From the NCBI GenBank assembly GCA_964599925.1, contig CAZRHN010000005.1, positions 2,563 through 28,709 of the forward strand: 26,147 nucleotides of DNA. Direction: 5' to 3'. Position 1 is the stretch's first letter. Each line of letters begins with the position of its first letter. Shown piece after piece: positions 3 to 14,401 of the stretch. This stretch comes from an uncultured bacterium. Its GTDB lineage: Bacteria; Elusimicrobiota; UBA5214. The notes beneath the pieces are model-generated. The model was not told the origin of the DNA. It worked only from the letters and a program-made list of their open reading frames with translations, and did not search any database. A program made the translations under genes and the position numbers.

Positions 3-950
3 ATTCTTTTTCTTAATCGGCGTGGGTATTCCACTTTTCTTCTTTGTCGTCGTTGTGGTTTTGTAGCAAAATGTCCACATTGCCATTTAAGTTTGGTTTA
101 TCACTGGCAGGGGAACATTCTTTCCTGTCATTATTGTCGCTATAAGGAAATACTGCCATTTTCTTGTCCTTCCTGTCGCAATTTGCGCTTATCTTTTTCA
201 GGCACGGGCACGGAGAAAGTAGAAAACGAAATTCGTAATTTATTCCCGCAAGCACGCTTACGACGAATGGACTTAGATACGACTAAGAAAAAGGACATCT
301 ATCACGAAATTTATCACGCATTTAAAAATGAAAAGATTGACATTCTTATTGGTACACAGATGATTGCGAAAGGTTTCGATTTCCCAAAGGTAAGTGTGGT
401 AGGGATAATTAATGCTGATACCGCCTTGCATTTACCTGATTTTCGTGCTGCGGAACGCACCTTCCAGTTAGTGATTCAAGTTGCCGGGCGCGCCGGTCGG
501 GCAGAAATACCAGGTAAAGTTATTCTGCAAACATATTGTCCGGAACATTATGCTTTGATAGCGGCTGCGGAACATAATTATGCTAAATTGTATGCAGAGG
601 AAATAAGACTGCGTAAGGAATTGGGTTATCCTCCTTTTGTCCATTTGGTCCGGGTACTTCTCCGCGGGGGAAAAGAAGATAAAGTACGCGCTCTGGCTAC
701 GGAAATTGTTGAAAAAATTAAATCTCAACAGAGATTACTAAAAATTAAGGCTGGCTATCTCAAAGGTATAGAGATAGTTGGACCAACACCAGCCGCCTAC
801 CCACGGATTGCCGGCAAATATCGTTGGCAAATTTTGCTTAAGTCGTGTAAAGATGCGAGTCTCAAGCAAATTCTTGACCCACTTAGAGACCTCTATCACT
901 CAAATAACGTGCAAATATCTTTTGATGCCAATCCTCTGGATATGCTTTGA
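3..950 (+). CDS. priA: Primosomal protein N' (PriA), C-terminal part; gene begins before the window
   Basis: Frame open from base 3 (ILFLNRRGYSTFLLCRRCG...CPHC...CHYC...CPSC zinc motifs); helicase motifs GTEKVE, DILIGTQMIAKGFDFP and QVAGRAGR; C-terminal YPPF. Confidence 0.97.
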   Translation: MLFLNRRGYSTFLLCRRCGFVAKCPHCHLSLVYHWQGNILSCHYCRYKEILPFSCPSCRNLRLSFSGTGTEKVENEIRNLFPQARLRRMDLDTTKKKDIYHEIYHAFKNEKIDILIGTQMIAKGFDFPKVSVVGIINADTALHLPDFRAAERTFQLVIQVAGRAGRAEIPGKVILQTYCPEHYALIAAAEHNYAKLYAEEIRLRKELGYPPFVHLVRVLLRGGKEDKVRALATEIVEKIKSQQRLLKIKAGYLKGIEIVGPTPAAYPRIAGKYRWQILLKSCKDASLKQILDPLRDLYHSNNVQISFDANPLDML

Positions 951-989
951 CCCTGCTCTTTCTCAAGGTCTTTTCAGAAAGGGCGGGGT
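950..989. repeat. Intergenic palindrome, ACCCYGC...GCRGGG family; may also act as a terminator-like hairpin
   Basis: ACCCTGCTCTTTCT (950-963) pairs with AGAAAGGGCGGGGT (976-989): 14 bp including 2 G-T pairs, 12-nt loop. Confidence 0.8.
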
Positions 990-993
990 AAAC

Positions 994-1021
994 TTGACAA
1001 ATCTTATAAATTTTGTAAAAT
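994..1021 (+). promoter_or_regulatory. Sigma70-like promoter upstream of def
   Basis: TTGACA (994-999), 16-nt spacer, TAAAAT (1016-1021). Confidence 0.6.
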
Positions 1022-1028
1022 GACTATC

Positions 1029-1058
1029 GCGTGGGGTAAACCCTGGGGAACCCCACGC
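1029..1058. repeat. Hairpin in the putative def 5' leader
   Basis: GCGTGGGGT (1029-1037) / ACCCCACGC (1050-1058) perfect 9-bp inverted repeat, followed by AAATTTTTT. Confidence 0.7.
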
Positions 1059-1092
1059 AAATTTTTTGATTGCGCTAATTAACTTTATTGCC

Positions 1093-1668
1093 ATGAGCAT
1101 ACGGGAAATAAAAAAATTTAATGAACCTATACTTTACCAGAAGGTTAAACCAGTAGAGAAGGTTACCTTGGAAACTAAAAATTTAATTCAAGACCTGAAA
1201 GATACTCTTCTGGCAAGTAAAGGTGTTGGATTAGCGGCTAATCAAATTGGTGTACCTTTAAGGGTGCTTGTGATAGACTTAAAGTCAGACTCAAGTAGCC
1301 AAGAGCCAAGAGCTTCACCCCGCACCAAACTCGGTGCGGGGCAAGAGAGCCAAGAGCGAATTCTTACTTTAATTAATCCAAAAATAGTTGCTTCTCGAGG
1401 GAGAGAAATTGCTGAAGAGGGATGTTTATCTTTTCCCGGGCTTTATCTCAAAATTAAACGTGCCTCCCGGATAAAAGTGGAAGCCTTGGACTTGCAAGAA
1501 AAATCTATAGTTATTGAAAGTGAGGGTTTACCTGCTCGTGTAATCCAGCACGAAATTGACCATTTGGAAGGGAAAGTTTTTATTGACCGTTTATCTTTCT
1601 GGAAAAGATGGAAAATTAAACGTGAATTAACACGAATAATGAAAGAAAAAACGAATTTACACGAATGA
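1093..1668 (+). CDS. def: Peptide deformylase with an in-frame repeat-derived insertion
   Basis: Motifs GVGLAANQIG, EGCLS and HEIDH. ATG 1093 (MSIREI) is preferred to TTG 1066. Confidence 0.97.
   Translation: MSIREIKKFNEPILYQKVKPVEKVTLETKNLIQDLKDTLLASKGVGLAANQIGVPLRVLVIDLKSDSSSQEPRASPRTKLGAGQESQERILTLINPKIVASRGREIAEEGCLSFPGLYLKIKRASRIKVEALDLQEKSIVIESEGLPARVIQHEIDHLEGKVFIDRLSFWKRWKIKRELTRIMKEKTNLHE
1297..1357. repeat. Composite insertion in def: AGCCAAG heptamers flanking a CCCCGCACC/GGTGCGGGG palindrome
   Basis: AGCCAAG x2 (1297-1310), 9-bp perfect stem (1318-1326 / 1333-1341), AGCCAAG again (1348-1354). Confidence 0.85.
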
Positions 1669-2627
1669 AAATTATTTTTTTTGGAACACCGGAAGTGGCG
1701 GTACCTTTTTTGGAATTTCTTTATAAAAATGAAAAAGTAGTAGCAGTAGTGACGCAACCGGATAAAAAGGCAGGTAGAGGTGTAGAACATCTTAAATTGT
1801 CTCCGGTAAAACTTTTTGCTAAGAAGAAAGGTTTACCCCTTTTTCAACCTTTAAAAATAGATGAACTACTCGCTACTCGCTACTCGTTATTCGCTGATTA
1901 TGATTTGGGTGTTGTAGTTGCTTACGGTAAAATTTTACCTAAATCTTTAATTGAAACTGCAAGATTGGGTTACATAAATGTACATTTTTCACTTCTGCCA
2001 AAATATCGTGGTGCCGCGCCGGTCCAATGGACATTGATTAATGGAGAAAAAGAAACCGGGGTGACTACTTTCTGGATTGACGAAGGATTGGATACAGGCA
2101 AAATTATTTGTCAAAAAAAAATAGCCATTGAAAATAGTGACACGGTGATTACCTTAGAAAAGAAATTAACCCCTCTTGGTATAGAAATACTTAAAGAAAC
2201 AATAGAAATAGTTAAAAAAAATCCGCAGGTCAGCAACCTTCAGATAGGTATACCTAGTTATGCACCGAGTTTAAAAAAGGAAGACGGTAAGATTAACTGG
2301 GGAGATAAAGATGCTTTTGAAATATGCAATCTAATTCGGGGGACACAACCTTGGCCCGGAGCATATTCAACAGTTAAAAGTGTAAAGTGTAAAGTGAAAA
2401 GTTTAAAAATTCTCGAAGCGGAAGTTGTTGATTTTAACCTATCACCTATCACCTATCACCTATCACCTGGTTCTATTGTCGGTCTTGAAAAAAGTATCGG
2501 TTTTATAGTAAAATGTAAAAATAATTTTTTGCTCATCTTAAAAGTGCAAGAAGAAGGGAAAAAAATAGTTTCTGCTTGGGACTGGTTGCAAGGGGCAAGA
2601 TTAAAAATTGGTGATTGTTTGGGGTGA
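1665..2627 (+). CDS. fmt: Methionyl-tRNA formyltransferase
   Basis: MKIIFFGTPE, VVTQPDKKAGRG, NVHFSLLPKYRGAAP, ETGVT, DEGLDTG, PWPGAY; follows def. Confidence 0.97.
   Translation: MKIIFFGTPEVAVPFLEFLYKNEKVVAVVTQPDKKAGRGVEHLKLSPVKLFAKKKGLPLFQPLKIDELLATRYSLFADYDLGVVVAYGKILPKSLIETARLGYINVHFSLLPKYRGAAPVQWTLINGEKETGVTTFWIDEGLDTGKIICQKKIAIENSDTVITLEKKLTPLGIEILKETIEIVKKNPQVSNLQIGIPSYAPSLKKEDGKINWGDKDAFEICNLIRGTQPWPGAYSTVKSVKCKVKSLKILEAEVVDFNLSPITYHLSPGSIVGLEKSIGFIVKCKNNFLLILKVQEEGKKIVSAWDWLQGARLKIGDCLG
1866..1895. repeat. Heptamer tandem array (CTACTCG)x3 plus TTATTCG, in-frame in fmt
   Basis: Read directly; encodes LLATRYSLFA. Confidence 0.9.
2377..2404. repeat. Heptamer tandem array AAAGTGT-AAAGTGT-AAAGTGA-AAAGTTT, in-frame in fmt
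   Basis: Read directly; encodes KSVKCKVKSL. Confidence 0.85.
2437..2468. repeat. Heptamer tandem array (ACCTATC)x4 plus ACCT, in-frame in fmt
   Basis: Four perfect copies; encodes NLSPITYHLSP. Confidence 0.95.
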
Positions 2628-2638
2628 TAACTCTTAGG

Positions 2639-3181
2639 ATGAGGCACTGGTTATTAGTTCGTTTTGGTTATCCGATTTTAGTAATTTTATCTAAACTTTT
2701 CCCTTGGGCTGAAGAATTTTATGAATCTGCGTTTATTAATTTTAATAATCAACTGGTAAAAGCAAAAAAAATTGTATTAAAAAAAGCACAACAACTTTTG
2801 GTTCTTTTACCACAATGTTTACAATTTGCTGATTGTCCGCATAAAATTACAAAAAATATACTCAATTGTCACCAATGCGGTAAATGTTTAATTGCTGATT
2901 TAGTTCGTTTGGGTGAAAAATATGGTTTGAAAATAAATGTTGCTACTGGTGGACGGTTAGCACGAAGAATTGTCTCTGACTTCAAACCAAATGCAATTGT
3001 TGCCTGTGCTTGTGAACACGAATTAGCCGATGGCGTTCAGGCGGTATACCCTTTACCAGTATTGGCTATATCCAACAGTCGTCCTTTTGGTCCCTGTTTA
3101 AATACCGGTGTTGATTTAGACAAAATTGAACAAGCAGTAAAAACGTTTTTAGGGGGTGAAAAAGATGAAAAATACATTTAA
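2639..3181 (+). CDS. DUF116-family protein
   Basis: LLVLLPQCLQ...C...CHQCGKC, VATGGRLAR, AIVACACEHEL, RPFGPCLNT pattern; typical position after fmt. ATG 2639 chosen. Confidence 0.8.
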   Translation: MRHWLLVRFGYPILVILSKLFPWAEEFYESAFINFNNQLVKAKKIVLKKAQQLLVLLPQCLQFADCPHKITKNILNCHQCGKCLIADLVRLGEKYGLKINVATGGRLARRIVSDFKPNAIVACACEHELADGVQAVYPLPVLAISNSRPFGPCLNTGVDLDKIEQAVKTFLGGEKDEKYI

Positions 3182-4031
3182 AACTTTTCTTTTGATGCTC
3201 GGTTTAACCTTACTCTTTTTATTCCTCGGACAAAATATTGCGGGGAGACAAGGGTTAATCACTGCTTTTCTTTTTGCTTTAGTGATGAATTTTGTTACTT
3301 ACTGGTTCAGCGATAAAATTGTTCTCGTGATGTATGGTGGACGACAAGTCTCCCGAGAACAAATGCCGGAAGTTTATGCTTTGTTGGATGAAATTACTAT
3401 GCAAGCCGGAATGCCGATGCCGAAAGTATATCTACTTCCAATGGAGGCACCGAATGCTTTTGCTACTGGACGTAATCCTGCGCATGCCAGTGTTGCCGTA
3501 ACTAAAGGTATCCTTAAACTTCTTGACCGCGAAGAACTGAAAGGGGTATTAGCCCATGAAATTGGACATATTAAAAATCGAGATATTCTCATTGCTACAA
3601 TTGCGGCTACAGTTGCGGGAGCGATAATTTTTCTTGCCCGGATGGCACAATATGCGGCAATTTTTGGTGGCGTGGGGCGTGATGAGCAGGAAAGAGGAGG
3701 CAATCCTTTAGGATTATTCCTTCTGGCAGTATTGGCACCTTTAGCCGCGATAATTATTCAAATGGCAATTTCTCGCACTCGTGAATATCAAGCCGACGAA
3801 ACTAGTGGAAAGATTTCTCGTAACCCGCTGGGTTTAGCGCGAGCGTTACAAAAACTTGATGCTTATGCACGGCGGATACCCTTGGCTAATGCTAATCCTT
3901 CAACTGCACATCTTTTTATCGTTAATCCTTTAAGGGGCGGTAGTATTTTTACCCTTTTCTCTACACATCCACCGATAAAAGAAAGAATTAAACGGTTGGA
4001 AAAACTTACTCAAGGAATGTCTGGTTATTAA
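3165..4031 (+). CDS. htpX: Zinc metalloprotease HtpX (M48)
   Basis: PNAFATGRNP, HEIGH (HExxH), SRTREYQADE, LFSTHPP; purine-rich SD before ATG 3165. Confidence 0.95.
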   Translation: MKNTFKTFLLMLGLTLLFLFLGQNIAGRQGLITAFLFALVMNFVTYWFSDKIVLVMYGGRQVSREQMPEVYALLDEITMQAGMPMPKVYLLPMEAPNAFATGRNPAHASVAVTKGILKLLDREELKGVLAHEIGHIKNRDILIATIAATVAGAIIFLARMAQYAAIFGGVGRDEQERGGNPLGLFLLAVLAPLAAIIIQMAISRTREYQADETSGKISRNPLGLARALQKLDAYARRIPLANANPSTAHLFIVNPLRGGSIFTLFSTHPPIKERIKRLEKLTQGMSGY

Positions 4032-4984
4032 TGAAAAGACAAAAATTATTTTATCAGTTACTTTTTACCGGGGTTGTTTTTCTTGGGGTGACTATTTTTC
4101 TTTTTAATCAAATAATGCACATATTGGTGCATCAGAAAAAGACAGTTACTGTGCCAAACTTAATTGGTAAACCGATGGAAGAAGCGCTTGACCTCTTAGC
4201 AAATTTGAATCTGGGGTTACAGAAAGTTGGTGAACGTTACGAGAAAAGATTTTCTCCGGGAACAATAATTCAGCAGAGACCTTCTCCCGGATTAACCGTT
4301 AGAGAAGGAAAAATTATCCGGGTGGCCCTCTCCCGGGGAGGGGAAATAATTTTTATTCCGGATTTAACGAATCAGTCTTTACGTTCTGCAGAGGTTATTT
4401 TACGGCGGAGCAATTTGGCATTAGGTGAAATTGACCAAAGTTACAGTCTTACTGTTGAAAAAGGGAAAATAATTCGCCAGAAACCTTTAGTGGGGACTGC
4501 GGTAGCGAGAGATAGTTTGGTTAATTTAGTTCTTTCTCTTGGATTACCGCCAGCGGGGATAGTATTGATGCCTGATTTCGTAAACAAAAATATTTCCGAA
4601 GCGGAACTCTGGATGCAAGAACGCAATTTAAAAATTAAACAGATTGAGGAAGATACAAATTCAACATTACCGAAAGGGACGATCCTTAAACAGATACCCT
4701 CAGCAGATACCGTGGTGAGCAAAGAAAGCGAGATAAAACTCGTAGTAAGTGGGCGAATTAAAGAAACATTTAAGAAATTATATTGGTTGCATTACGAAAT
4801 ACCGCAGGCAGATGAAGAAAAGAATATCCGTATTTTCCTTGAAGATAGCGCTGGAGAGCGTATCGTCTACGAGAAGGCACATTTACCGGGGACAAAAATT
4901 GATTTACCCTTAGCAGTTGAAGACAAAGGAAAAATAAAAATATTTGCCAACGAAATTTTAGTTGAAGAAAGAATACTTGAATGA
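4031..4984 (+). CDS. Membrane-anchored PASTA-domain protein (about 3 PASTA repeats, no kinase domain)
   Basis: N-terminal TM segment; repeats VPNLIG / IPDLTN / MPDFVN each followed by G.IIxQ.P motifs. Confidence 0.85.
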   Translation: MKRQKLFYQLLFTGVVFLGVTIFLFNQIMHILVHQKKTVTVPNLIGKPMEEALDLLANLNLGLQKVGERYEKRFSPGTIIQQRPSPGLTVREGKIIRVALSRGGEIIFIPDLTNQSLRSAEVILRRSNLALGEIDQSYSLTVEKGKIIRQKPLVGTAVARDSLVNLVLSLGLPPAGIVLMPDFVNKNISEAELWMQERNLKIKQIEEDTNSTLPKGTILKQIPSADTVVSKESEIKLVVSGRIKETFKKLYWLHYEIPQADEEKNIRIFLEDSAGERIVYEKAHLPGTKIDLPLAVEDKGKIKIFANEILVEERILE

Positions 4985-5661
4985 AAAATAAAATTGCCCC
5001 TTCACTACTCAGTGCTGACTTTTCTTGCTTGCAAAAAGAGTTGAAATTAGTTGAGCGTGCCGATGCTGACCTTTTACATCTTGATGTAATGGACGGACAT
5101 TTTGTTCCCAATCTTACATTCGGACCATTATTATTAGAGTCCTTGAGAAAATATACTGCGTTGCCTTTTGATGTTCATTTAATGATTGAAAATCCTGCTA
5201 AATTTGTTGAGCGTTTTATCTCCGCAGGTGCAAAATATATTACCTTCCATTCTGAAGCGTCTACTCCTACGGAAATCAAAAAAATTCTAACTTATCGAAA
5301 GGTGAAAACCGATGGCGGGTATCTCAAAGTTGGCTTGGCGATTAAACCGAAAACTCCACTGGAGACAATTCTTCCCTATCTTAAGAATTTAGATTTGGTG
5401 CTGGTGATGACAGTTGAACCGGGTTTTTCTGGACAGAAATTTATGCCGGAAGTTTTACCTAAAGTAGCCTACTTACGAAAAATCTTAAATAAAAGAAAAC
5501 TTAATTTGGAAATTGAAGTTGATGGTGGGATTAATCCGGCGACTGCAAAACAATGTGCTTTGGCGGGGGCAAGTATTTTTGTTGCGGGGAACAGTATTTT
5601 TCGTAGCGGTAATATCCGAAAAGCAATTTTTGAATTAAGAAAAAGTATTTCTCCCATATAA
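4981..5661 (+). CDS. rpe: Ribulose-phosphate 3-epimerase
   Basis: IAPSLLSADF, HLDVMDGHFVPN, DVHLM, MTVEPGFSGQ, VDGGI. Confidence 0.97.
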   Translation: MKNKIAPSLLSADFSCLQKELKLVERADADLLHLDVMDGHFVPNLTFGPLLLESLRKYTALPFDVHLMIENPAKFVERFISAGAKYITFHSEASTPTEIKKILTYRKVKTDGGYLKVGLAIKPKTPLETILPYLKNLDLVLVMTVEPGFSGQKFMPEVLPKVAYLRKILNKRKLNLEIEVDGGINPATAKQCALAGASIFVAGNSIFRSGNIRKAIFELRKSISPI

Positions 5662-5679
5662 GTAACTCGGATAGAGAAT

Positions 5680-5708
5680 TTGACTAAAAAAATATTTTAA
5701 TGTATAAT
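5680..5708 (+). promoter_or_regulatory. Sigma70 promoter for the rpsP operon
   Basis: TTGACT (5680-5685), 17-nt spacer, TATAAT (5703-5708). Confidence 0.8.
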
Positions 5709-5743
5709 CGTTACAAATTTTGAAAATAAGAATTGGAGGAGAA

Positions 5744-6046
5744 ATGGCGGTAAGAATAAGATTTCAACGTCTCGGTCGTCCGAAGCATCCCTTTTTTCGT
5801 TTGGTAGCAGTGGAAAAAAGAAAAAAAAGGAACGGAGAAATTATTGAAAAACTTGGTTATTACAACCCAAAAACTAAGGAATTTAGGTTTGCTGCAGAAA
5901 GAGTTAAGTTCTGGTTAGCAAAAGGTGCGCAACCCTCAGAAACAGTGAGTAATCTTTTGAAAAGAAATCTAAAGAAAAGCGAAAAGCCCGCTTCGCAGCG
6001 AGGCGAGCCGGATTCGGTGAGCAAGCCCGGCGAAAAGTCAGGTTAG
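5744..6046 (+). CDS. rpsP: 30S ribosomal protein S16 with a GC-rich C-terminal tail
   Basis: MAVRIRFQRLGRPKHPFFRLVA, EKLGYYNP, WLAKGAQPSETV; GGAGG SD before ATG 5744. Confidence 0.97.
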   Translation: MAVRIRFQRLGRPKHPFFRLVAVEKRKKRNGEIIEKLGYYNPKTKEFRFAAERVKFWLAKGAQPSETVSNLLKRNLKKSEKPASQRGEPDSVSKPGEKSG

Positions 6047-6082
6047 TTTTTCTGAACGGGAAAATGGAGGTGAAAAGAGAAG

Positions 6083-6313
6083 ATGAAGGACCTTTTATTG
6101 ACGATGGCTAAAGCGTTGGTTGATTACCCCACGCAGGTGGAGATTAAGGAAGTTGAAGGGGAGCGGACAAGAATTCTTGAACTGAAAGTTGCTGAGACTG
6201 ACCGCGGAAAAATCATTGGTAAAGAAGGGAGAATTATTAAAGCAATCAGAACGATTGTTAACGCTGCTTCAGCAAAACAAAATAAACGTGTAACTGTAGA
6301 AATTATTGAATAG
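6083..6313 (+). CDS. khpA: KH-domain RNA-binding protein (KhpA/YlqC-like)
   Basis: [20 protein letters not shown] (GxxG KH loop); canonical position after rpsP; GGAGGTG SD. Confidence 0.9.
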
Positions 6314-7055
6314 GATAGACATAATTACGCTTTTCCCTTCAATGTTTGTTGGTCCCTTTAATGAAAGTATTATCAAAAGGGCAATTGAAAAGGGAAAAGT
6401 AAAAATTTTCGTTCACAATTTACGTAATTTTGGCGTTGCTAAACATCGCCTTTGCGATGATCGCCCTTACGGCGGTGGTCCGGGTATGGTTTTGAAACCC
6501 GAACCAATCTGGCGAGCCCTAAAAGCGATTAAACAAAGAGCAAAGAACAAAAAGCAAAAAATAATTCTTCTTTCTCCGCAGGGAAAACTCTTTAATCAGA
6601 AAGAAGCAGAAAGATTAGCAAAATACAAACATTTAATTTTAATCTGCGCCCATTACGAAGGCGTGGATGAGCGAGTATATTCCTGGATTGATGAAGAAAT
6701 TTCCATCGGTGATTATATTTTAACTGGAGGTGAAATACCTACCTTAGTCCTTGTTGATAGTATTGTTCGTCTTCTACACGGGGTTGTAGGAAAGAGTGAA
6801 TCGCTGAAAAGTGAGTCCTTTAGTGGTAAATTTCTTGATCACCCTCAGTATACCCGACCCCGATGTTACCGAAGTAAAAGGGTGCCCGCAGTTCTCCTTT
6901 CCGGGGATCATAAGAAAATTGCTCTCTGGCGTAGGAAAGAGGCAATTAAAAATACCTATTTACGGCGCCCGGATTTACTGACGAAGATACGTTTAACCAA
7001 AGGAGAGAAAAAAATTGTAGAAAAGGTAAAGAAAAAATATGCGTGGACTGATTGA
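6306..7055 (+). CDS. trmD: tRNA (guanine-N1)-methyltransferase
   Basis: [48 protein letters not shown]; TTG start. Confidence 0.97.
6532..6559. repeat. Degenerate heptamer array AACAAAG-AGCAAAG-AACAAAA-AGCAAAA in trmD
   Basis: 7-nt periodicity; encodes [10 protein letters not shown] in a variable loop. The A-rich composition lowers certainty. Confidence 0.55.
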
Positions 7056-7467
7056 CCTGGTTGAATCGCAAATAATAAAATCAGGATTAAAGAAAGACTT
7101 ACCTCAATTCCGTGTCGGTGATACGGTAAGAGTATGGTTTAAGATTGTTGAAAATCCCTCGGAGAAGCCAAGCGAAGCGGTGGTGCGTTTACAACCTTTT
7201 GAAGGGATCGTAATTCGTTACCGTGGGACAGGTTTATCCCGCACTTTTACAGTACGAAAGATTTCTTCCGGTATCGGTGTAGAGCGCACCTTTCCCTTGT
7301 ATTCCCCACAAATTGAAAAAATTGAAGTTTCAAAATCAGGTAAAATAAGACGAGCGCGATTATATTACTTACGCTATGCTCTCGGTCGCGCTGCTCGGGT
7401 TGAGGGAGAAACGGTTAAAGAAACAACAGGTAGTGTTAGTGAACAGGCAGAAAAAAATATTTCCTGA
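7039..7467 (+). CDS. rplS: 50S ribosomal protein L19
   Basis: [49 protein letters not shown]. Confidence 0.97.
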
Positions 7468-7843
7468 AAATAAAGGGCGATGGCAAGAATTCGGGCATTA
7501 CGGGGAAAGAATCGCCTTAGAGTTCTTAGAAAAAGAGGGTTACCGTATTCTTGAAAAGAATTATCGTTGCCAACTGGGTGAAATTGATTTAATTGCCCGG
7601 GATAAAAATATAATTGCCTTTATTGAAATAAAATCTCGTCAAGGGCTAAGTTTTGGTTCTCCTCAAGAGGCAGTTACTCACCATAAACAAAGACAGATTG
7701 TTAAAGTTGCACTCTATTATCTAAAACAAAAACACCTCCTTAAAGACCGTCTATTATTTAGATTTGATGTTGTATCTATTTCTCCAGAGGGTATTGAATT
7801 GATTAAGGATGCTTTCTCGTCCCCAGCGGGGTATACATATTGA
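7439..7843 (+). CDS. YraN/UPF0102 family putative endonuclease; start uncertain
   Basis: [43 protein letters not shown]. In-frame GTG 7439 has AGGT 7 nt upstream. Confidence 0.85.
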
Positions 7844-7844
7844 A

Positions 7845-8915
7845 ATGATTATTGGTCTTACCGGTCCAAATGCCTGTGGCAAAGGAGAAGTTGCAAAATA
7901 TTTATCCACTAAAGGTTACCGGGTTTACTCTTTATCCGATGTTTTACGTACCGAAGCAGAAAAAGTGGGGTTAGACCTTTCTCGCCAAAATTTGATTAAT
8001 TTTGGACGGAAATTAAGAAAAAAATATGGTAAAGCAGTACTGGTAAAAAAACTTTTATCGCAAATTCAAAAACATAAAAATGTAGTCATTGACAGTATAA
8101 GAAATACTGGCGAAATTAGCGAATTGCGTAAACTATCAACTATCAACTCTCAACTGTCAACTGTTTTTATTCTTGGTGTTGATGCACCAGCAAAATTGCG
8201 TTATCAAAGATTGTGTCAACGCAAACGTTTAGGGGACACAAAAACTTTTACTGAATTTATGGAAACTGAAAAAAAGGAAAATTCTTCAAATAAATTTAAC
8301 CAACAAATTAGCCACTGTATGAAATTAGCCGATAAAGTTATCATCAATGACAGTTCGCTTAAACAATTACATAAAAGAATTGACTCTTTTCTTTCTGCAA
8401 TTGAGAACTCCCGCTTACCACTTACCACTCACTACTCACCAGTTCCCCGTCCCTCATGGGATAAATATTTTCTTAAACTTGCATTATTGGTTGCCGAAAG
8501 GTCAACCTGTCGGAGACACCATGTTGGTGCGGTAATTGTCCGTGATAAACGTCTGCTCACTACCGGTTATAACGGTGCACCAGCGGGAGTAAAAGATTGC
8601 CTTGAGTTGGGTTGTTTAAGGGAAGAATTAGGTATACCTTCAGGAACAAGACAGGAAATCTGTCGGGCGATTCATGCAGAACAAAATGCAATTATTCAGG
8701 CGGGGTTATACGGAATAAATATTGAAGGAGCAACAATTTATTGCACTCATACACCCTGCACTCTTTGTGCACGGATGCTTGCTAATGCAAAAATAAAAAG
8801 ATATGTTACCTGCGGAACTTATGCCGATAAGTCTTTTTGTTCTCTGTTTAATGAGGCAAAAATAAAATTTGCCAAACTTAAAAAACCGAACTTAAAAATA
8901 GGAATTTTAGATTGA
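7845..8915 (+). CDS. Fusion: P-loop NMP/dephospho-CoA-kinase-like domain plus dCMP (cytidine/deoxycytidylate) deaminase
   Basis: N-terminal IIGLTGPNACGKGEVA (Walker A), LSDVLR, VIDSIRN. C-terminal RPSWDKYF, RSTC, VGAVIV, TGYNG, HAEQNAI, PCTLC. ATG 7845 chosen. Confidence 0.88.
   Translation: MIIGLTGPNACGKGEVAKYLSTKGYRVYSLSDVLRTEAEKVGLDLSRQNLINFGRKLRKKYGKAVLVKKLLSQIQKHKNVVIDSIRNTGEISELRKLSTINSQLSTVFILGVDAPAKLRYQRLCQRKRLGDTKTFTEFMETEKKENSSNKFNQQISHCMKLADKVIINDSSLKQLHKRIDSFLSAIENSRLPLTTHYSPVPRPSWDKYFLKLALLVAERSTCRRHHVGAVIVRDKRLLTTGYNGAPAGVKDCLELGCLREELGIPSGTRQEICRAIHAEQNAIIQAGLYGINIEGATIYCTHTPCTLCARMLANAKIKRYVTCGTYADKSFCSLFNEAKIKFAKLKKPNLKIGILD
8131..8163. repeat. Heptamer array AACTATC-AACTATC-AACTCTC-AACTGTC-AACTG, in-frame
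   Basis: Read directly; encodes KLSTINSQLST. Confidence 0.9.
8414..8441. repeat. Heptamer array CTTACCA-CTTACCA-CTCACTA-CTCACCA, in-frame in the interdomain linker
   Basis: Read directly; encodes LPLTTHYSP just before the deaminase RPSW motif. Confidence 0.85.
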
Positions 8916-8969
8916 CACTGAAATGGGATTAGTAAGTTTAACAAAACTAATTATCCAAAGGCGAGAGAA

Positions 8970-9620
8970 ATGGTAGAGAACTTATTTTGGTTAGGGCATG
9001 CAAGTTTCAAAATTACCGGAGAGATGGTTCGAGACCCTCACCATCCCGAGCAAAGTCGAAGGATGGTTGTCTATGTTGACCCCTGGCAGATAAAGAAAGG
9101 TGGTGAGCCGGCAAACATAATTTTGATTACTCATGACCATTATGACCATTGTTCAGCAGAAGATGTAAAAAAGATACAAACCAAAGATACAGTTATTGTT
9201 ACTGTTTCTCAGTGTAAAAGTAACCTTAGTGGTGAAATAATTATTACCAAACCGAATGAAAAAATTACTGTGCAAGGAATTGAGATAAGTGCTGTACCGG
9301 CTTACAATCTCAATAAGCCTTTCCATCCCAAAGCAAACGGTTATCTCGGTTTTATTGTTAATTTGAATAAGAAACTTTATTATCATGCCGGGGATACTGA
9401 TTTCATTCCCGAAATGGAAAAGGTTAAATGTGATATTGTCCTTTTACCAGTCTCGGGAACTTATGTGATGACCGCGGAAGAAGCAGCGAAAGCGACTGAG
9501 AAAATTAAACCTGCACTTGCGATCCCAATGCATTATGGCAGTATCGTCGGGTCAAGAAAAGATGCTGAACAGTTTAAAAAGTTATGTGAATGTTCGGTAG
9601 AAATCTTAGAAAAAAGTTGA
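8970..9620 (+). CDS. MBL-fold metallo-hydrolase (UlaG-like/beta-lactamase superfamily)
   Basis: WLGHASF, THDHYDH (HxHxDH), YHAGDT, AIPMHYG. Confidence 0.9.
   Translation: MVENLFWLGHASFKITGEMVRDPHHPEQSRRMVVYVDPWQIKKGGEPANIILITHDHYDHCSAEDVKKIQTKDTVIVTVSQCKSNLSGEIIITKPNEKITVQGIEISAVPAYNLNKPFHPKANGYLGFIVNLNKKLYYHAGDTDFIPEMEKVKCDIVLLPVSGTYVMTAEEAAKATEKIKPALAIPMHYGSIVGSRKDAEQFKKLCECSVEILEKS
9023..9068. repeat. Palindromic element in-frame in the MBL gene, bounded by GATGGTT direct repeats
   Basis: GATGGTT at 9023-9029 and 9062-9068 (39 nt apart); internal TTCGA...TCGAA inverted repeat. Confidence 0.8.
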
Positions 9621-9624
9621 ACAA

Positions 9625-11205
9625 ATGTTTTATCTTGAACCGTTAGTTCTACCCGAAGAAGAAAATTTTACCGACCGTTATTTAAAATTATCTAAAAATT
9701 TGTTTTCCCTCGGCTTTGCTCGGGATGGTGAAAATATTGAACTATTAGCCCAAGATAAAGATATGAATTATCAGCAAATTCCCTTGAGCCTCAATGAAAA
9801 AATTTTGCGCATAATCTGGTATGAACAAAAATTTGAACGGCGTGGTTTAAGGACAGTTGATGGTAAAAAGATTTGTATTATCTCACCCGGTGAATGGAAT
9901 CTTGATGAGGGACCAGATTTTAAAAGTGCGGAGATACGTTTTGGTGAAAAGATAATTTCTGGAGATATTGAAGTAGACCTGAAAGCATCCGACTGGAAGA
10001 AACATCAACATAACTGTGATGAGAAATATAATCAAGTAATCCTTCATGTTTTTTTTCTCAATAATCGCAAAGAAGAAAAAATTGCCCGAAAAGCAAATCA
10101 GGAATACGCTGAGCGTGTGGAACTGCGCGGAGCGTTGAGAGAAGATTACCTCCCCAATCCGGAAGATATGGAAAATTATCCTTCCCGTGCTTATTTAAAA
10201 AGAGGTAACTGTGGTAAAAAAATTTCTGTTCATAGTTATCCCTTAATAGAGAAGTTACTCCTCTGGGCTGGCGCGGGAAGATTTTTATTAAAAACCGAAC
10301 GGTTTAATCAGCGCTTAGCACGATTATCTTTTGACCAACTTCTTTATGAAGGGGTAATGGAAGGTCTAGGTTATAAAGCGAACCGTGAGCCGATGCTTAC
10401 TCTCGCTCGCTTGTTACCTTTAGAAAAAATTAAAAGTTATGTGGAAGATTTTCCTCTTGAAGAAAAAATTTACCTCCTGGAGACACTTTATTTTTATCTT
10501 TCTGGACTTTTACCAGAAGAAAAATATTTTTCTTCTTCTTCTTGTCCAGAAACAAAAATTTATCTTGAAAAGTTATGGACAATTCTGAAAAATTATCTGA
10601 AATTTCTGCCTACACCTTTTCATCTCAGTCGCTGGGTATTTAAAGGTGTCCGTCCGGCGAATTTTCCTTTAAGACGTCTTTCGGGGATAAGCCATTTTCT
10701 TAACCGCCATTGGCAAGGAGTAAAGGAAGGTTTTTTTCTTTCTTTCTATAAAAAAATAAAGATGGCTAATTCAATAAATGAGTTGAAAAAAATTTTTTTT
10801 CAACCTGGGGAAGGATATTTTGCCAACCACAGCCAATTTTCCCAGAAAAAAAGTAAAAAAGTATATGCTTTAATTGGTGAAGAACGAGTTTCGGCAATTC
10901 TGGTGAATACAGTTTTTCCTTTATATTACCTTTATGCATTGCGGGAAAATGATTTATCTACCCAGAAGATAATCTATTCGTTTTATCACTCTTTGAAAAG
11001 AATAAACGTTAACCATATTGCTAAATTGATGGCTTACCGTCTTTTTGGTGCAGAGAAAATCAGGCAATTTCCGATTGAAAGCGAACAAAAACAGCAAGGT
11101 CTTTTACAAATTTTTCAAGATTTTTGCGAGACAAGAATTTCCGCTTGTGGACAATGTTTCTTTCCACAAATTTTTGATTTGTCAATTGGCGAAATAATAA
11201 AGTGA
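9625..11205 (+). CDS. DUF2851-family protein; start could be ATG 9763
   Basis: EKILRIIW, PGEWNLDEGPDF, GDIEV..KASDWKKHQH..D..YNQVILHV, RPANFP..RL pattern recalled for DUF2851. Confidence 0.75.
   Translation: MFYLEPLVLPEEENFTDRYLKLSKNLFSLGFARDGENIELLAQDKDMNYQQIPLSLNEKILRIIWYEQKFERRGLRTVDGKKICIISPGEWNLDEGPDFKSAEIRFGEKIISGDIEVDLKASDWKKHQHNCDEKYNQVILHVFFLNNRKEEKIARKANQEYAERVELRGALREDYLPNPEDMENYPSRAYLKRGNCGKKISVHSYPLIEKLLLWAGAGRFLLKTERFNQRLARLSFDQLLYEGVMEGLGYKANREPMLTLARLLPLEKIKSYVEDFPLEEKIYLLETLYFYLSGLLPEEKYFSSSSCPETKIYLEKLWTILKNYLKFLPTPFHLSRWVFKGVRPANFPLRRLSGISHFLNRHWQGVKEGFFLSFYKKIKMANSINELKKIFFQPGEGYFANHSQFSQKKSKKVYALIGEERVSAILVNTVFPLYYLYALRENDLSTQKIIYSFYHSLKRINVNHIAKLMAYRLFGAEKIRQFPIESEQKQQGLLQIFQDFCETRISACGQCFFPQIFDLSIGEIIK
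9706..9730 (-). repeat. Second copy of the 9039-9063 element, inverted orientation
   Basis: Reverse complement CACCATCCCGAGCAAAGCCGAGGGA vs CACCATCCCGAGCAAAGTCGAAGGA: 23/25 identical. Confidence 0.9.
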
Positions 11206-12578
11206 AAACCTGTTTATTGATGAAAAAAATATTCGGGAAAAAAAATTTTGGACTCCTTAAGGAAATTGGGCAAGCAGCCCAAGAGGATGGTCTTACTGCT
11301 TATTTGGTTGGTGGGCCGGTACGTGATTTTCTATTGAATAAGCTGAGTAAACCCTGCACCAGAAGGATGCAGGGCAAGGATTTAGATATTGTAATTTCCG
11401 GTGGAGAGAAACTTGAGGAAAATACGGCAATAAATTTGGCAAAAAAGTTATTTAAAATTTGGTCGCCTCATCGGCGACTTGCCGGAGAGGCATGGCAGAA
11501 AAGAATAAAATTTAAGATACATCAGCGTTTCGGAACAGCGACCATTTTATTTCCTGAAAAAGGAAACCAACTTTTAGAAATAGACTTTGCTTTTTCCCGT
11601 AAGGAAAACTATCCTTCTCCTGGTAGATTGCCGGAAGTGGAGCCAGGCAATATTGAAGACGACCTTTATCGTCGGGATTTTACGATTAATGCTTTAGCAG
11701 TAAATTTAAGTTCGGACGAGTTTGGCGAATTGGTCGATTCTACTGATGGAAAAAACGATTTAAAAAAAAAATTTATTCGTGTGCTTCACGAAAAAAGTTT
11801 TCTTGATGATCCGACCAGGATATTGCGGGCGGCACGCTTCGCCGGAAGATATAATTTTTCTTTAGAAAAAAAAACTTTAACTTGGTTAAAAGAAGCGATA
11901 AAGAAAAATGCGCTTTTCACAATTAGCCGGCAACGTTTCCGCGAAGAGATGGTGAACATTTTGAAGGAGAAAGAGTCCGCTCATTGCCTTAATTTACTTG
12001 CTGATTGGAGTGTGTTAAGTTTCTTGAGTCCTGATATCCGTTGGGATAAAACCAAAACTATAGATTATAAAATGGAAAAAGGAGACGAAAATTGGTTGGT
12101 AGGGTTGCTTCTGCTGATCAAAGATTTAGATTATCAAAAGACGGAAGAAATTACCAGAAGGATGGTTTTAACCCGCAAGGAGAGAAAAATAATTCTCCAG
12201 AGTAAGAAATATTTACCCGATGCTCTTAAAGCATTGGAGAAAAACTATTCACTTACCCATCTTTATCACTATCTTTCTTTACTTCCCGAACAAGGGTTGA
12301 TATACTTAGGGGTGACCAATTCTTGTTGGACAAATCTAATTGGTACTTTTCAGAGGAGAAAAGACAAAGCAAAACCGGTACTCAACGGTGAAGATTTGAA
12401 AAAAATAGGATATCCTCCAGGGCCAATTTATAAAAAAATATTGAAAAAAATTTTTCAGGTTAAACTTTTAGGTAAGTTGCCGACTTACCTATCAGAAAAA
12501 CAGACTAAGGAAAAAGAAATCAAATTTGTCCTCCGACATTTTCCTCTTAAAGGGGTGACAGCGAAGGAGCGCGCCTAA
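11202..12578 (+). CDS. Class II tRNA nucleotidyltransferase / poly(A) polymerase family
   Basis: LVGGPVRDFLL, DLDIV, RRDFTINALA, SFLDDPTRILRAARF, LNGEDL..G.PPGP. CCA-, A- or CC-adding specificity cannot be determined from this. Confidence 0.9.
   Translation: MKTCLLMKKIFGKKNFGLLKEIGQAAQEDGLTAYLVGGPVRDFLLNKLSKPCTRRMQGKDLDIVISGGEKLEENTAINLAKKLFKIWSPHRRLAGEAWQKRIKFKIHQRFGTATILFPEKGNQLLEIDFAFSRKENYPSPGRLPEVEPGNIEDDLYRRDFTINALAVNLSSDEFGELVDSTDGKNDLKKKFIRVLHEKSFLDDPTRILRAARFAGRYNFSLEKKTLTWLKEAIKKNALFTISRQRFREEMVNILKEKESAHCLNLLADWSVLSFLSPDIRWDKTKTIDYKMEKGDENWLVGLLLLIKDLDYQKTEEITRRMVLTRKERKIILQSKKYLPDALKALEKNYSLTHLYHYLSLLPEQGLIYLGVTNSCWTNLIGTFQRRKDKAKPVLNGEDLKKIGYPPGPIYKKILKKIFQVKLLGKLPTYLSEKQTKEKEIKFVLRHFPLKGVTAKERA
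11351..11378. repeat. ACCCYGC-family palindrome in-frame in the nucleotidyltransferase
   Basis: CCCTGCA-CC / GG-A-TGCAGGG followed by CAAG; encodes KPCTRRMQGK. Confidence 0.75.
11465..11491. repeat. Second palindrome in-frame in the nucleotidyltransferase
   Basis: GCCTC-A-TCGGC / GCCGG-A-GAGGC stem with loop GACTT; within SPHRRLAGEAW. Confidence 0.7.
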
Positions 12579-12770
12579 CGAAGTAGCGAGCGAGTAAGCG
12601 CAATAAGGGGTCGCTGACCGACACTGTCTGAGCGACGAAAAGGAGCTCGTGTCTTGACAGGCCCGAAGGGCAGGATGTCGGGACTTGCGACACAGGCTGA
12701 ACGACGAAGAGGAGTTCGTGCCTTGCGTGCGGCAAAGCCGTGCGAAGTCCTTGATTCTCCTCTATTGAGA
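12541..12770. mobile_element. Candidate non-autonomous structured repeat element (MITE/REP-like), long variant
   Basis: GC-rich multi-hairpin block homologous to 25889-25904 and 25978-26067; contains a 69-nt-period internal duplication. Mobility is inferred, not shown. Confidence 0.6.
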
Positions 12771-12776
12771 GAAAAG

Positions 12777-13382
12777 ATGTTGATCCAGATTTTTGTATTA
12801 CTTTTTGCGGTAGTAGTTCACGAATGTTGTCATGGATGGATGGCCGAAAAATGTGGCGATGATACTGCACGAATAATGGGAAGAATTACCCTTAATCCTC
12901 TACCGCATTTAGACCCATTTGGTTCAATTTTACTTCCTTTACTTTTGATTTTAAGTCGGTCCCCTTTCCTCTTTGCTTGGGCAAAACCGGTACCGATTAA
13001 TCCAACAAAATTCAATAATCTACGGCAGGATTTAGTTAAAGTTGCTTTAGCCGGTCCGGGAGCAAATTTTCTTCTGGCAGTTATCTCAGCAATATTTCTT
13101 TGGTTCGTACCTAGAGGTTTAGTTTTCTACGATACCTTAAATTTTTCGGTATTGATAAATTTAGTTTTGGGTGTGTTTAACCTTATCCCCATACCACCGC
13201 TTGATGGTTCACGGGTTGTTTCGGGTTTATTGCCCTTAGATTTATCTTATAAGTACGATTCCCTTGCCCCTTATGGGTTCATTATTGTTATTTTCCTTTT
13301 TTACAGCGGTTTCTTAGGTTCGGTTCTCTGGCCAATTGTAGTTTTTTTGCATCGGCTTTTACTTATTGGAATCAAGTTTTAG
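12777..13382 (+). CDS. Site-2 protease family (peptidase M50)
   Basis: HECCH (HExxH), GDDTARIMGRITLNPLPHLDP, VALAGP, FNLIPIPPLDG. ATG 12777 chosen; the upstream 41 codons of the ORF call lie in the repeat element. Confidence 0.92.
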   Translation: MLIQIFVLLFAVVVHECCHGWMAEKCGDDTARIMGRITLNPLPHLDPFGSILLPLLLILSRSPFLFAWAKPVPINPTKFNNLRQDLVKVALAGPGANFLLAVISAIFLWFVPRGLVFYDTLNFSVLINLVLGVFNLIPIPPLDGSRVVSGLLPLDLSYKYDSLAPYGFIIVIFLFYSGFLGSVLWPIVVFLHRLLLIGIKF

Positions 13383-13387
13383 ATGAA

Positions 13388-14401
13388 ATGAAAAGAATTC
13401 TTTCTGGAATGCGTCCTTCGGGAAAATTGCATGTTGGTCATTATTTTGGTGCTCTAAACAACTGGGTAAATTTGCAAGATTCATATGAGTGCTATTATAT
13501 GATTGCTGATTGGCATGCGTTAACTTCTGAATATGCGAATCCAGGTGAACTTCAAGAAAATATATCGGAGATGGTCATTGATTGGTTAGCCTCCGGAATT
13601 AACCCGAACAAAAGTGTTCTTTTCCGTCAATCGGAAGTTAAGGAACACGCAGAACTACATTTGCTACTTTCAATGATTATACCCCTCCCCTGGCTTGAAC
13701 GCTGTCCGACTTACAAGGAACAATTACAAGAAATTAAAGATAGAGATTTATCAACCTATGGATTTTTAGGTTACCCAGTTTTACAGGCGGCAGACATTCT
13801 TATTTACAAGGCGGAATTTGTCCCGGTTGGCGAAGATCAGTTACCACATTTAGAATTATCCCGGGAAATTGCACGGCGATTTAACAATTTTTATGGTTCA
13901 CCCCGCCCTTGCACACAAGAGCGGGGTAAAATTTTACCCGAACCTCAGGCATTACTGACGGAAACAGCGAAATTGCCGGGTGTTGATGGGCGAAAGATGT
14001 CAAAATCTTATAATAACGCAATTTACCTCTCGGATTCGGAAGAAGGGGTTACCGAGAAAGTAAGGAATATGTTTACTGATCCGCAAAAAATAAGAATTGA
14101 TGACCCCGGACATCCGGAGACTTCCGGCTGCGTGGTTTACGCTTTTTATCAAGCCTTAGCTCCACACTTTTTTGAAAAAGTGCGGGGTGAATGTGAAAAA
14201 GGAAAAATTGGTTGCGTTGCCTGTAAAAAGGAACTGGCTGTAATTTTGAATCACTTTTTAGAGCCCTTTCGGAAAAGACGAAAAGAATTAGCCTCTGACC
14301 CAGAAAAAATTAAAAAAATTCTTCTTCAAGGAAAAGAAAAAGCGCAAATTGTTGCTCAGAAAACAATGGCCGAAGTGCGTAAAGCAATGAATCTTCAATA
14401 A
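13388..14401 (+). CDS. trpS: Tryptophan--tRNA ligase
   Basis: SGMRPSGKLHVGHY (HIGH), GYPVLQAADIL, VPVGEDQ, KMSKSY. Confidence 0.97.
   Translation: MKRILSGMRPSGKLHVGHYFGALNNWVNLQDSYECYYMIADWHALTSEYANPGELQENISEMVIDWLASGINPNKSVLFRQSEVKEHAELHLLLSMIIPLPWLERCPTYKEQLQEIKDRDLSTYGFLGYPVLQAADILIYKAEFVPVGEDQLPHLELSREIARRFNNFYGSPRPCTQERGKILPEPQALLTETAKLPGVDGRKMSKSYNNAIYLSDSEEGVTEKVRNMFTDPQKIRIDDPGHPETSGCVVYAFYQALAPHFFEKVRGECEKGKIGCVACKKELAVILNHFLEPFRKRRKELASDPEKIKKILLQGKEKAQIVAQKTMAEVRKAMNLQ
13900..13930. repeat. ACCCYGC-family palindrome in-frame in trpS
   Basis: ACCCCGC-C-CTTG / CAAG-A-GCGGGGT; encodes SPRPCTQERG. Confidence 0.85.

Follow-up and report, generated by a model that had tools for sequence, protein, structure and literature searches.

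The locus and its palindromes

The stretch of DNA analysed here (the window) comprises 26,147 nt of contig CAZRHN010000005.1 from an uncultured bacterium assigned by GTDB to the Elusimicrobiota, has a GC content of 31-42%, and contains short GC-rich palindromes that recur in a spacer and, in frame, inside housekeeping genes. According to NCBIfam, the genes concerned are the part of priA encoding the C-terminus (93-950), def (1093-1668), a tRNA nucleotidyltransferase gene of the A-adding/CCA type (11202-12578) and trpS (13388-14401), which are the identities that the first-pass annotation of this DNA had given them. The closest named relatives of the tryptophanyl-tRNA synthetase (TrpRS, ≤65%) and of the peptide deformylase (PDF, ~46%) come from metagenome-assembled genomes (MAGs) of Elusimicrobiota/Endomicrobiia, and those of the nucleotidyltransferase (~37%) from Omnitrophota MAGs.

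The four palindromes reported initially are present where they had been placed (Table 1), as sharp GC islands. The motif CCCYGC followed within 60 nt by GCRGGG occurs exactly four times in the window, at these four sites, compared with a mean of 0.04 and a maximum of 1 in 200 dinucleotide shuffles, and GC-rich perfect hairpins number 8 against 1.7 ± 1.3 in shuffles. Folded as single-stranded DNA, the four reach z = -3.3 to -4.4. Repeated GC-rich 10-mers form 98 pairs in the window, mostly by chance; a 12-mer belonging to these hairpins (family A) and an 18-mer belonging to a second type of repeat (family B) stand out. One further hairpin, at 18719-18737, was dismissed as an insertion, since the corresponding spacer of relative L003, upstream of the galT ribosome-binding site, conserves it.

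A covariance model (R1) was trained on 23 family-A hairpins, not including the intergenic copy, and the window was scanned with filters off. Five loci were returned and nothing else below E = 0.1. The intergenic copy was recovered at E=2e-7 on the minus strand (30.6 bits versus 19.7 on the plus strand), which shows it to be inverted relative to the other reported copies. The fifth locus, overlooked in the first pass together with several other in-frame inserts, is a second and inverted copy in trpS (14159-14191), which has the 12-mer TTCACCCCGCAC in common with the copy in def. It was among the 23 training sequences, so its R1 score of 28 bits is not independent. With about 20 distinct sites of the trpS type in public metagenomes and MAGs (see below), the expectation that further copies exist was borne out.

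Filled and empty sites in relatives

Syntenic contigs of close relatives (L-numbers) were retrieved via homologues of TrpRS, PDF and the nucleotidyltransferase, and all indels between them and the window were recorded in a codon-aware census. Nearly all indels of at least 7 codons with well-aligned flanks are GC-rich and strongly folding (dG/nt ≤ -0.29). The window holds at least eight lineage-specific in-frame inserts, made up of two in trpS, two in the nucleotidyltransferase gene, one in def, one 33-nt hairpin of different sequence and two non-palindromic 39-nt repeats, plus two intergenic insertions; the genes of a metallo-beta-lactamase (MBL) fold hydrolase and a DUF2851 protein are thereby also hosts. 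For each of the four reported palindromes there is a relative that lacks the insert altogether (def in L007, the spacer in L008, trpS in L003, the nucleotidyltransferase in L004), rather than one that keeps the same residues in DNA without a palindrome.

In trpS, it had been predicted that removal of 30 nt would restore the normal spacing, and this excision is exact: where the window reads TTTTATGGT-TCACCCCGCCCTTGCACACAAGAGCGGGGT-AAAATTTTACCC, L003 (~87% amino acid identity) reads TTTTATGGT|AAAATTTTACCC, that is, FNNFYGKILPEP. The target TATGGT^AAA is empty in L003 (TATGGT^AAAATT), holds the 30-nt element in the window, a different 24-nt hairpin (TCAGTCCGACGGAACCGTCGGGGT) in L006 and a 93-nt composite in L004. 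A second hot spot in the same gene, at FYQAL^, contains a double hairpin in L003, a ACCCCGTTAGA...TCTAACGGGGT hairpin in L006 and the inverted family-A copy in the window; this last, putative insertion brings no net change of length relative to L004.

The def insert consists of a TTCA tag (1314-1317), the 24-nt hairpin CCCCGCACCAAACTCGGTGCGGGG and repeated CAAGAG(C) target-like sequence, is bounded by a 10-nt direct repeat (AGCCAAGAGC) and folds as DNA with z=-4.4. Its site is empty in L007 (P0122, 89% amino acid identity), which reads AGTAGCCAAGAGCGAATTC / GACTCAAGTAGCCAAGAGCGAATTC with two substitutions in about 95 nt of flank, and is occupied by other inserts in other relatives. The spacer copy, TTTA-CCCCGCCCTTTC...GAAAGAGCAGGG on the minus strand, folds with z=-3.3. 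Its empty counterpart in L008, GATATGCTTTGA^CTTGACAAATC, has identical flanks and lacks the 42 nt.

Directly downstream of the spacer insertion lies a conserved, sigma-70-like promoter, TTGACA-17-TAAAAT (993-1021). It is followed at 1029-1058 by a 9-bp GC hairpin and a T-run, GCGTGGGG…CCCCACGC AAATTTTTT, and L008 has a hairpin at the matching position with a fully compensatory stem, GCGTCCCG…CGGGACGC. The 1029-1058 hairpin was ruled out as a family member, being a positionally conserved leader structure with compensatory changes. Judged by its sequence, the region 993-1070 resembles a conserved def-fmt operon leader of the attenuator or terminator type, distinct from the mobile hairpins.

The first nucleotidyltransferase insert (11349-11375) is common to the window, L006, L023, L024 and relatives down to ~57% identity (P0244, P0246), and is missing from the more distant relative L004/P0245, from P0249 and from all outgroups. 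The orthologous stems are CCCTGCACC…GGATGCAGGG in the window and CCCCGCACC…GGGTGCAGGG in L006, each with a different unpaired mismatch. Orthologous copies thus decay by unpaired substitutions, which indicates that the stem is not maintained by selection.

The second insert in this gene (11463-11495) is polymorphic between strains. L023 is identical to the window over 3.9 kb save for this site and one single nucleotide polymorphism elsewhere, and reads TGGCAAAAGAGAGAGAAAAGA where the window has TGG-TCGCCTCATCGGCGACTTGCCGGAGAGGCATGG-CAGAAAAGA. L006 and L004 are empty here too, and the more distant L003 is filled. The flanks in the window keep the haplotype shared with L023. The polymorphism stems either from a gain that is very recent or from recombination over a very short patch.

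Table 1. Palindromes and inserted sequences in the window
Feature	Position	Strand	Sequence or composition	Context
Family-A hairpin	951-988		CCCTGCTC...GGGCGGGG	priA-def spacer, directly 3' of priA stop codon (948-950)
Family-A hairpin	1318-1341		CCCCGCACC-AAACTC-GGTGCGGGG	def
Family-A hairpin	11352-11374		CCCTGCA..TGCAGGG	nucleotidyltransferase gene
Family-A hairpin	13900-13927		ACCCCGC..GCGGGGT	trpS
Intergenic family-A insertion	951..992	-	42 nt: hairpin 951-988 + 4 nt	between priA stop codon and def promoter
In-frame insertion	1297..1347	+	51 nt, encodes SQEPRASPRTKLGAGQE	def
In-frame insertion (KPCTRRMQG)	11349..11375	+	27 nt: 23-nt hairpin + 4 nt	nucleotidyltransferase gene, directly before catalytic DLD
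In-frame hairpin insert (SPHRRLAGEAW)	11463..11495	+	33 nt, sequence type TCGCCTCATCGGCGACTTGCCGGAGAGGCATGG, unlike family A	nucleotidyltransferase gene
In-frame insertion	13897..13926	+	30 nt: TTCA + 26-nt hairpin CCCCGCCCTTGCACACAAGAGCGGGG, encodes (G)SPRPCTQER	trpS
Second family-A copy	14159..14191	-	inverted; minus strand TTCACCCCGCACTTTTT-CA-AAAAAGTGTGG	trpS, second hot spot FYQAL^
Family-B in-frame insert (MVRDPHHPEQSRR)	9024..9062	+	39 nt, repeat type …CTCACCATCCCGAGCAAAGTCGAAGG	MBL-fold hydrolase gene
Family-B in-frame insert	9703..9744	-	39 nt, inverted	DUF2851 gene
Hairpin composite	12621..12770	.	~150 nt, GC-rich	spacer between nucleotidyltransferase and M50 peptidase genes

Element anatomy and junctions

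In its minimal form, the element is a GC-rich palindrome of 23-38 nt with outer arms CCCCG/CGGGG or CCCTG/CAGGG, plus about 4 nt; the commonest form has a loop of 2-6 nt, and net inserts measure 24-51 nt. The net insertion equals the hairpin plus 4 nt in six of seven cases (trpS 26+4, nucleotidyltransferase 23+4, DUF2851 gene of L006 23+4, spacer 38+4, RtcA 26+4, TrpRS of L030 26+4). The exception is def (24+4+23), where the extra 23 nt are reiterations of the CAAGAG(C) target. Twenty-one copies give the consensus (G)TTCA-CCCCGCCCTTGC-loop-GCAAGAGCGGGG-TTCA, with TT as the two 5' bases in 17-18 and TTCA as the four 3' bases in 16-19 of them. The 3' flank CAAG/TAAA that the first-pass annotation described as shared is not a dependable mark of the element: the commonest flank is TT...TTCA, and the TAAA in trpS belongs to the target and not to the element.

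Longer forms of 61-104 nt with the same termini as the short ones, (T)TCACCCCGC(C/A)C...G(G/T)GCGGGG(T), were found in L007, L016, L017, L018, L022, L027 and L030. On this sequence comparison, the short hairpins look like minimal derivatives, two fused inverted repeats, of elements the size of MITEs (miniature transposable elements with inverted repeats).

The flanking 4-mers often match (TTCA/TTCA; TCCA/TCCA in L029, TCAA/TCAA in L022). They do not match around the copies in trpS, the spacer and the nucleotidyltransferase gene, and the empty trpS site is without TTCA. Some targets (MnmA, RtcA) already hold TGAA(CCCCG). A uniform target rule was discarded, since neither a 4-bp duplication nor insertion beside TTCA fits every junction. 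The junctions could reflect a 4-bp target duplication with a target preference, insertion next to a tetranucleotide in the style of IS200/IS605 or of repetitive extragenic palindromes (REPs), or microhomology-templated copying.

Dispersal beyond this genome

A search for exact matches to CACCCCGCCCTTGC-NNN-CAAGAGCGGGG gave 12 stretches in JGI metagenomes, and the same pattern with R allowed at one position gave 9 stretches in GTDB species genomes, labelled Omnitrophota (n = 5), Saccharibacteria (n = 2), Clostridia (n = 1) and “uncultured bacterium” (n = 1). After orthologous duplicates were dropped, 21 distinct contexts remained, on contigs of 34-52% GC. The 28-mer of the trpS hairpin (26 fixed bases) is thus present in many genomes, at about 20 loci unrelated to one another. 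A scan of IMG/VR with the exact pattern, for a phage vector, gave no matches.

More than half of the copies outside the window sit in long open reading frames (ORFs), as do four of the five family-A copies in the window. In-frame hosts are peptidyl-tRNA hydrolase (Pth, in a composite of ~40 amino acids), IscS/NifS (two units), RtcA, MnmA, GatB, a primase-like protein, an MBL hydrolase, an AP endonuclease and a ribonucleotide-reductase-like protein; a different TrpRS site is also hit in an Omnitrophota MAG. Of the six frames in which the 30-nt unit can be read, five are open, and each of these is in use, in both orientations (sense FTPPLRARAG, HPALARKSGV and xPRPCxQERG; antisense PRSCAQGRGE and NPALARKGGV), and the sixth contains a TGA within the TTCA tag.

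Some copies form part of larger structures. In L033 (CAZCSJ010000005.1, 6620-6800, 52% GC, with a Saccharibacteria label), the anticodon loop of a tRNA-Val-like gene is interrupted by an element of 107 nt with arms TTCACCCCGTTAGA…TCTAACGGGG(CAAG), which carries a complete tRNA-Val(TAC) at 6685-6758. Without the element, the split gene gives a 74-nt tRNA-like fold; it seems that an element with hairpin arms has brought a substitute tRNA into a tRNA gene. Intergenic repeats of composite structure, about 180-250 nt long, occur in L017 (2193-2372, 3264-3513, 4906-5137) and L022 (857-1007, 3332-3416) and combine several hairpin modules, among them the trpS-type hairpin and one element of 85 nt. Three of these composites lie within 5.8 kb, between small ORFs that resemble toxin-antitoxin genes, one of them putatively PIN-like, in a mosaic arrangement resembling BIMEs; one small ORF beside them may be DUF4258-like. 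In L028 (1850-1890), a trpS-type hairpin is directly followed by TTTTTTT, and this copy may have been co-opted as an intrinsic terminator.

Inserts in the encoded proteins

The peptides are those announced in the first pass, GSPRPCTQERG in TrpRS and SKPCTRRMQG in the nucleotidyltransferase, and mapping onto structures of PDF, TrpRS and the A-adding enzyme places the inserts at gaps relative to solved homologues and, in AlphaFold models, in coil of lower confidence. The models of TrpRS and the nucleotidyltransferase were made from alignments of 56 and 52 sequences and have mean predicted local distance difference test (pLDDT) scores of 86.7 and 90.1, respectively. The 30-nt insert of trpS is a 10-residue gap against Thermotoga maritima TrpRS (2g36) and forms a connection with pLDDT 72 between the helix 149-169 and the strand 187-190. 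The match of NCBIfam model PRK12283, a TrpRS family of 400 residues, to the window protein falls into two parts, with the break at residue 171, the position of the hairpin. Because the match also splits here, the sequence evidence marks the loop at ~171 as a recurrent, naturally permissive insertion point.

In the nucleotidyltransferase, alignment with the A-adding enzyme of Aquifex (4wby) leaves a 9-residue gap opposite the insert at 11349-11375, immediately ahead of DxD. As had been noted, the insert precedes the catalytic motif (KDLDIV, aligned to the DVD of 4wby), and its residues (37-45 of the model) are the sole stretch with pLDDT < 50. The insert at 11463-11495 lies in coil with a mean pLDDT of 65-74. 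About 17 residues of PDF, situated between the β-strands …VIDL and LINP…, align with none of the solved PDFs. Outside the window, the RtcA insert is exactly a 10-residue gap against 4o89 and the IscS insert a 20-residue gap against 9wep.

All coding copies examined (>20) are multiples of three in length and stop-free, which speaks for translation and against bypassing or splicing. They would yield surface loops of 8-17 residues, rich in Pro, Arg, Gly and Cys, in essential enzymes.

A proposed selfish repeat tolerated in genes, and its alternatives

Dispersal, clean presence or absence, nesting, turnover at hot spots, preservation of frame, freedom from stop codons, location in loops and decay of stems are all observed, and we infer mobility from the presence/absence polymorphism together with the dispersal. 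We regard it as likely that the palindromes are a non-autonomous, hairpin-forming selfish repeat resembling REPs, MITEs or the Rickettsia palindromic elements (RPEs). In genes, the hairpin is best read as tolerated, because the frame is preserved and nearly free of stop codons. A copy would be mobilised in trans, most likely as single-stranded hairpin DNA, by a transposase of the HUH/RAYT type or by another kind of enzyme. Alternatively, it might be copied by microhomology-guided template switching, for which the junctions offer microhomology of 1-10 nt. Selection would then remove insertions that break the frame or the fold.

Several points weigh against a selfish repeat. No target duplication of fixed length is evident, the direct repeats at the junctions being 1, 2-3, 3, 3, 6 and 10 nt long. 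TTCA came with the element in trpS, but RtcA, MnmA and TrpRS of L030 keep TGAA after removal of the insert. The strain polymorphism at 11463-11495 could have arisen by short-patch recombination with an L003-like allele and not by new transposition. A transposase was not found; tblastn with Escherichia coli RayT over 260 kb, a small sample, gave nothing better than E=1.6, and no parent insertion sequence with the same inverted repeats was present among the loci examined. Translation of the inserts is deduced and not observed.

That the hairpins are instead RNA or DNA structures selected for regulation (terminators, mRNA-stabilising or RNase sites, translational pause sites) seems unlikely to us. 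The intergenic copy does lie directly after the priA stop codon, the copy in L028 with its T-run resembles an intrinsic terminator, and REPs are known to stabilise mRNA (PMC3733652). However, copies come and go between near-identical strains and close relatives and are inserted in both orientations and five reading frames, and the unpaired substitutions that distinguish the nucleotidyltransferase copies of the window and L006 are not compensatory, whereas the truly conserved def leader hairpin at 1029-1058 shows full compensation in the same data. Very unlikely, in our judgement, is the recruitment of the inserts as adaptive Cys/Arg/Pro-rich surface loops with the palindromic DNA as an incidental feature. 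The likeness of the TrpRS and nucleotidyltransferase peptides (SPRPCTQERG and KPCTRRMQG) and the position of one insert next to a catalytic motif would fit such a role, but the same DNA is read in five frames as unrelated peptides, close relatives function without the inserts, the loops are predicted with low confidence, and copies occur in spacers too. Even less credence is due to a local origin of each palindrome by template-switch or quasi-palindrome mutation or slippage, to which the variable junction microhomology and the reiterated CAAGAG target around the def insert might point. This is contradicted by the identical 28-mer at about 20 unrelated loci and by the 12-mer and 18-mer common to different window genes, because a local process cannot yield the same sequence repeatedly.

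Programmed translational bypassing or removal of the inserts from the mRNA, with the GGT codons of trpS as take-off and landing sites, has precedents in T4 gene 60 and in the mitochondrial “byps” of Magnusiomyces, which are GC-rich elements in AT-rich genomes. The geometry GGT...hairpin...GGT in trpS is suggestive, but a stop-free length divisible by three in more than 20 coding copies is a constraint needed only if they are translated, no stop codon follows the putative take-off codon, and other copies have no matched codons, so we hold this explanation to be most improbable. The least probable of all is that errors of sequencing or assembly, for example hairpin chimeras, produced the inserts. 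All data are indeed metagenome assemblies; against this, an identical trpS product, insert included, recurs on 5 contigs that JGI and Logan assembled from different samples, the nucleotidyltransferase copy is common to the window, L006, L023 and L024, and the frames are intact.

The selfish repeat might also be something more specific, which we consider possible though rather doubtful: an active, horizontally spreading “nano-MITE” family of about 30 nt (26-nt hairpin + 4 nt, a length neutral to the frame), shared across uncultured AT-rich phyla and moved by a mechanism new for REPs and MITEs. If so, it would be the smallest mobile DNA that routinely colonises essential protein-coding genes, and its phyla would include an Elusimicrobiota-like lineage, Omnitrophota and others. 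Its mobiliser would be a new HUH-type enzyme recognising TTCA plus hairpin, or else the process would be microhomology-templated copying, and it could carry cargo, compare the tRNA-Val inside the hairpin arms in L033.

Comparison with known repeats

RPEs are 105-146 bp long, form a long stem-loop and are fused in frame in 19 protein genes, and for one protein with an RPE, guanylate kinase, both translation and activity were demonstrated (PMC2229807). In Rickettsia gmk, the RPE is cited as an insert that is neutral to the enzyme or mildly harmful (PMC2229807). The elements described here are similar in that they are palindromic repeats found in spacers and in frame in housekeeping genes, where they are tolerated as additional surface peptides. 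RPEs also occur in RNA genes, and a related element here splits the tRNA gene of L033. Unlike these elements, which are 23-40 nt (long forms 61-104 nt), GC-rich, polymorphic between strains, recurrent at hot spots and present in several uncultured lineages, RPEs have the AT bias of their host, occur in Rickettsia only, and are for the most part old and fixed; the host proteins here are nearest to those of Elusimicrobiota/Omnitrophota MAGs and not of Rickettsiales. The first-pass description as a mobile RPE-like element therefore holds as an analogy of behaviour and fails as a family assignment, given a length 3-5 times shorter, an apparently unrelated sequence and a different phylum.

REPs carry a GTAG or CGTC tetranucleotide at one end, and REPs so tagged occasionally lie inside ORFs in Proteobacteria (PMC3733652). 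The elements here resemble REPs and REPINs as imperfect GC-rich palindromes of 20-40 nt with many copies, a flanking tetranucleotide, clusters and composites, and apparently no fixed target duplication. However, their tag is TTCA, commonly on both sides, with no GTAG or CGTC in 21 copies, and their density in essential genes is far above what is reported for the mainly extragenic REPs. REPs and REPINs are mobilised by RAYT, an IS200/IS605-like Y1 transposase, and no RAYT was seen in the 260 kb searched, which is a weak test. By size, tag, host and apparently sequence, the elements belong neither to the RPE nor to the GTAG/CGTC REP families.

With MITEs such as Correia/NEMIS, RUP, ERIC, YPAL and Nezha, the elements share terminal inverted repeats, probable non-autonomy, and filled and empty sites between relatives, and the 61-104-nt forms look like classical MITEs. 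Typical MITEs are 70-300 bp long, AT-rich, with TA ends and a fixed target duplication, whereas the short elements here are two fused inverted repeats with variable junction repeats. The closest “ecological” analogy is offered by the mobile GC clusters of AT-rich yeast mitochondria, which are short GC-rich palindromes also present in coding genes. Yeast mitochondria contain such clusters and derived “byp” elements, and fungal mitochondria contain double-hairpin elements. The present host is a bacterium, however, and byps are bypassed by the ribosome without need for a frame, whereas all copies here keep the frame. Coding palindromes have also been described in mitochondrial genes of Nematomorpha (PMC6649704), and the 107-bp Correia element has open frames and is fused to ORFs (PMC2229807). 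CRISPR repeats differ from the elements here, whose copies are solitary, with spacings of 1141 and 1641 nt in L017. At the gathering threshold, Rfam recognised only a tRNA-Met (26076-26147) in the window and no CRISPR-DR, and permissive Rfam scans of two element-rich stretches gave chance miRNA-like matches far under threshold.

No description of such elements in Elusimicrobiota or Omnitrophota was present in the full-text literature searched. What seems noteworthy is how densely they occur in essential genes, how very small they are, how they turn over among close relatives and how they apparently extend across uncultured phyla. Selfish DNA in frame in essential genes, known mainly from Rickettsia, would be a more general, much smaller and more dynamic phenomenon. 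Where sister genomes carry different elements at the same sites, they provide a natural map of insertion tolerance in conserved enzymes. The elements would account for odd length variation and “low-complexity” loops in proteins of candidate phyla, which bears on annotation, phylogenetic alignment and structure prediction. The apparent sharing of a 28-nt sequence across phyla calls for an explanation by horizontal transfer, and TTCA plus the CCCCGC hairpin is a tractable signature for finding the mobilising enzyme.

Other repeats and neighbouring genes

The two family-B inserts are missing from L004 and L006 and have the 18-mer CACCATCCCGAGCAAAG.. in common (9039-9056 and, on the other strand, 9714-9731). 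Family B was rejected as a hairpin (DNA fold z = -0.2 and -0.5) and is a dispersed in-frame repeat, not a palindrome. The AP-endonuclease gene of L004 contains a related family-B copy with nested family-A hairpins, and the nested hairpin differs from the trpS element of the window only in its loop, CGTG instead of CACA.

The composite at 12621-12770 has an internal direct repeat, GA(G/A)CGACGAA(A/G)AGGAG(C/T)TCGTG, and an RNA fold of -59 kcal/mol. L003 and L006 lack it, and their spacers measure 7-90 nt. The M50 peptidase ORF, as called (12654-13382, 242 amino acids), runs through this composite. Since relatives start about 43-50 codons later and are 199-220 amino acids long, alignment places the true start probably near 12777 (ATG).

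A separate family of double hairpins, consisting of TCCGCCAAAGGCGGA + TC(A/C)GCC(T/C)CGGGC(T/G)GA and GAGCCTGAGGCTC + ATCAACCTCGGGTTGAT, is absent from the window and occurs at L008 6970-6999, L003 3361-3399, and L003 547-576 / L006 3086-3115. These lie in frame in fmt (L008), in trpS (L003) and in the N-terminus of the nucleotidyltransferase (L003/L006).

The ribosomal protein S16 gene of the window ends in 67 nt (5973-6039) that are GC-rich and strongly folding (RNA fold -20 kcal/mol). The protein has 108 amino acids compared with 95 in L004 and L009, and the stretch may be another element giving a C-terminal extension. Finally, the ORF at 7809-8915 encodes an AAA/nucleotide-kinase-like domain fused to a deaminase of the dCMP/ComEB type. 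In NCBIfam it matches “anti-phage dCTP deaminase” best, at 118 bits far under the 400-bit cutoff, and in L009 the kinase-like and deaminase halves are two genes (17223-17798 and 17788-18354).

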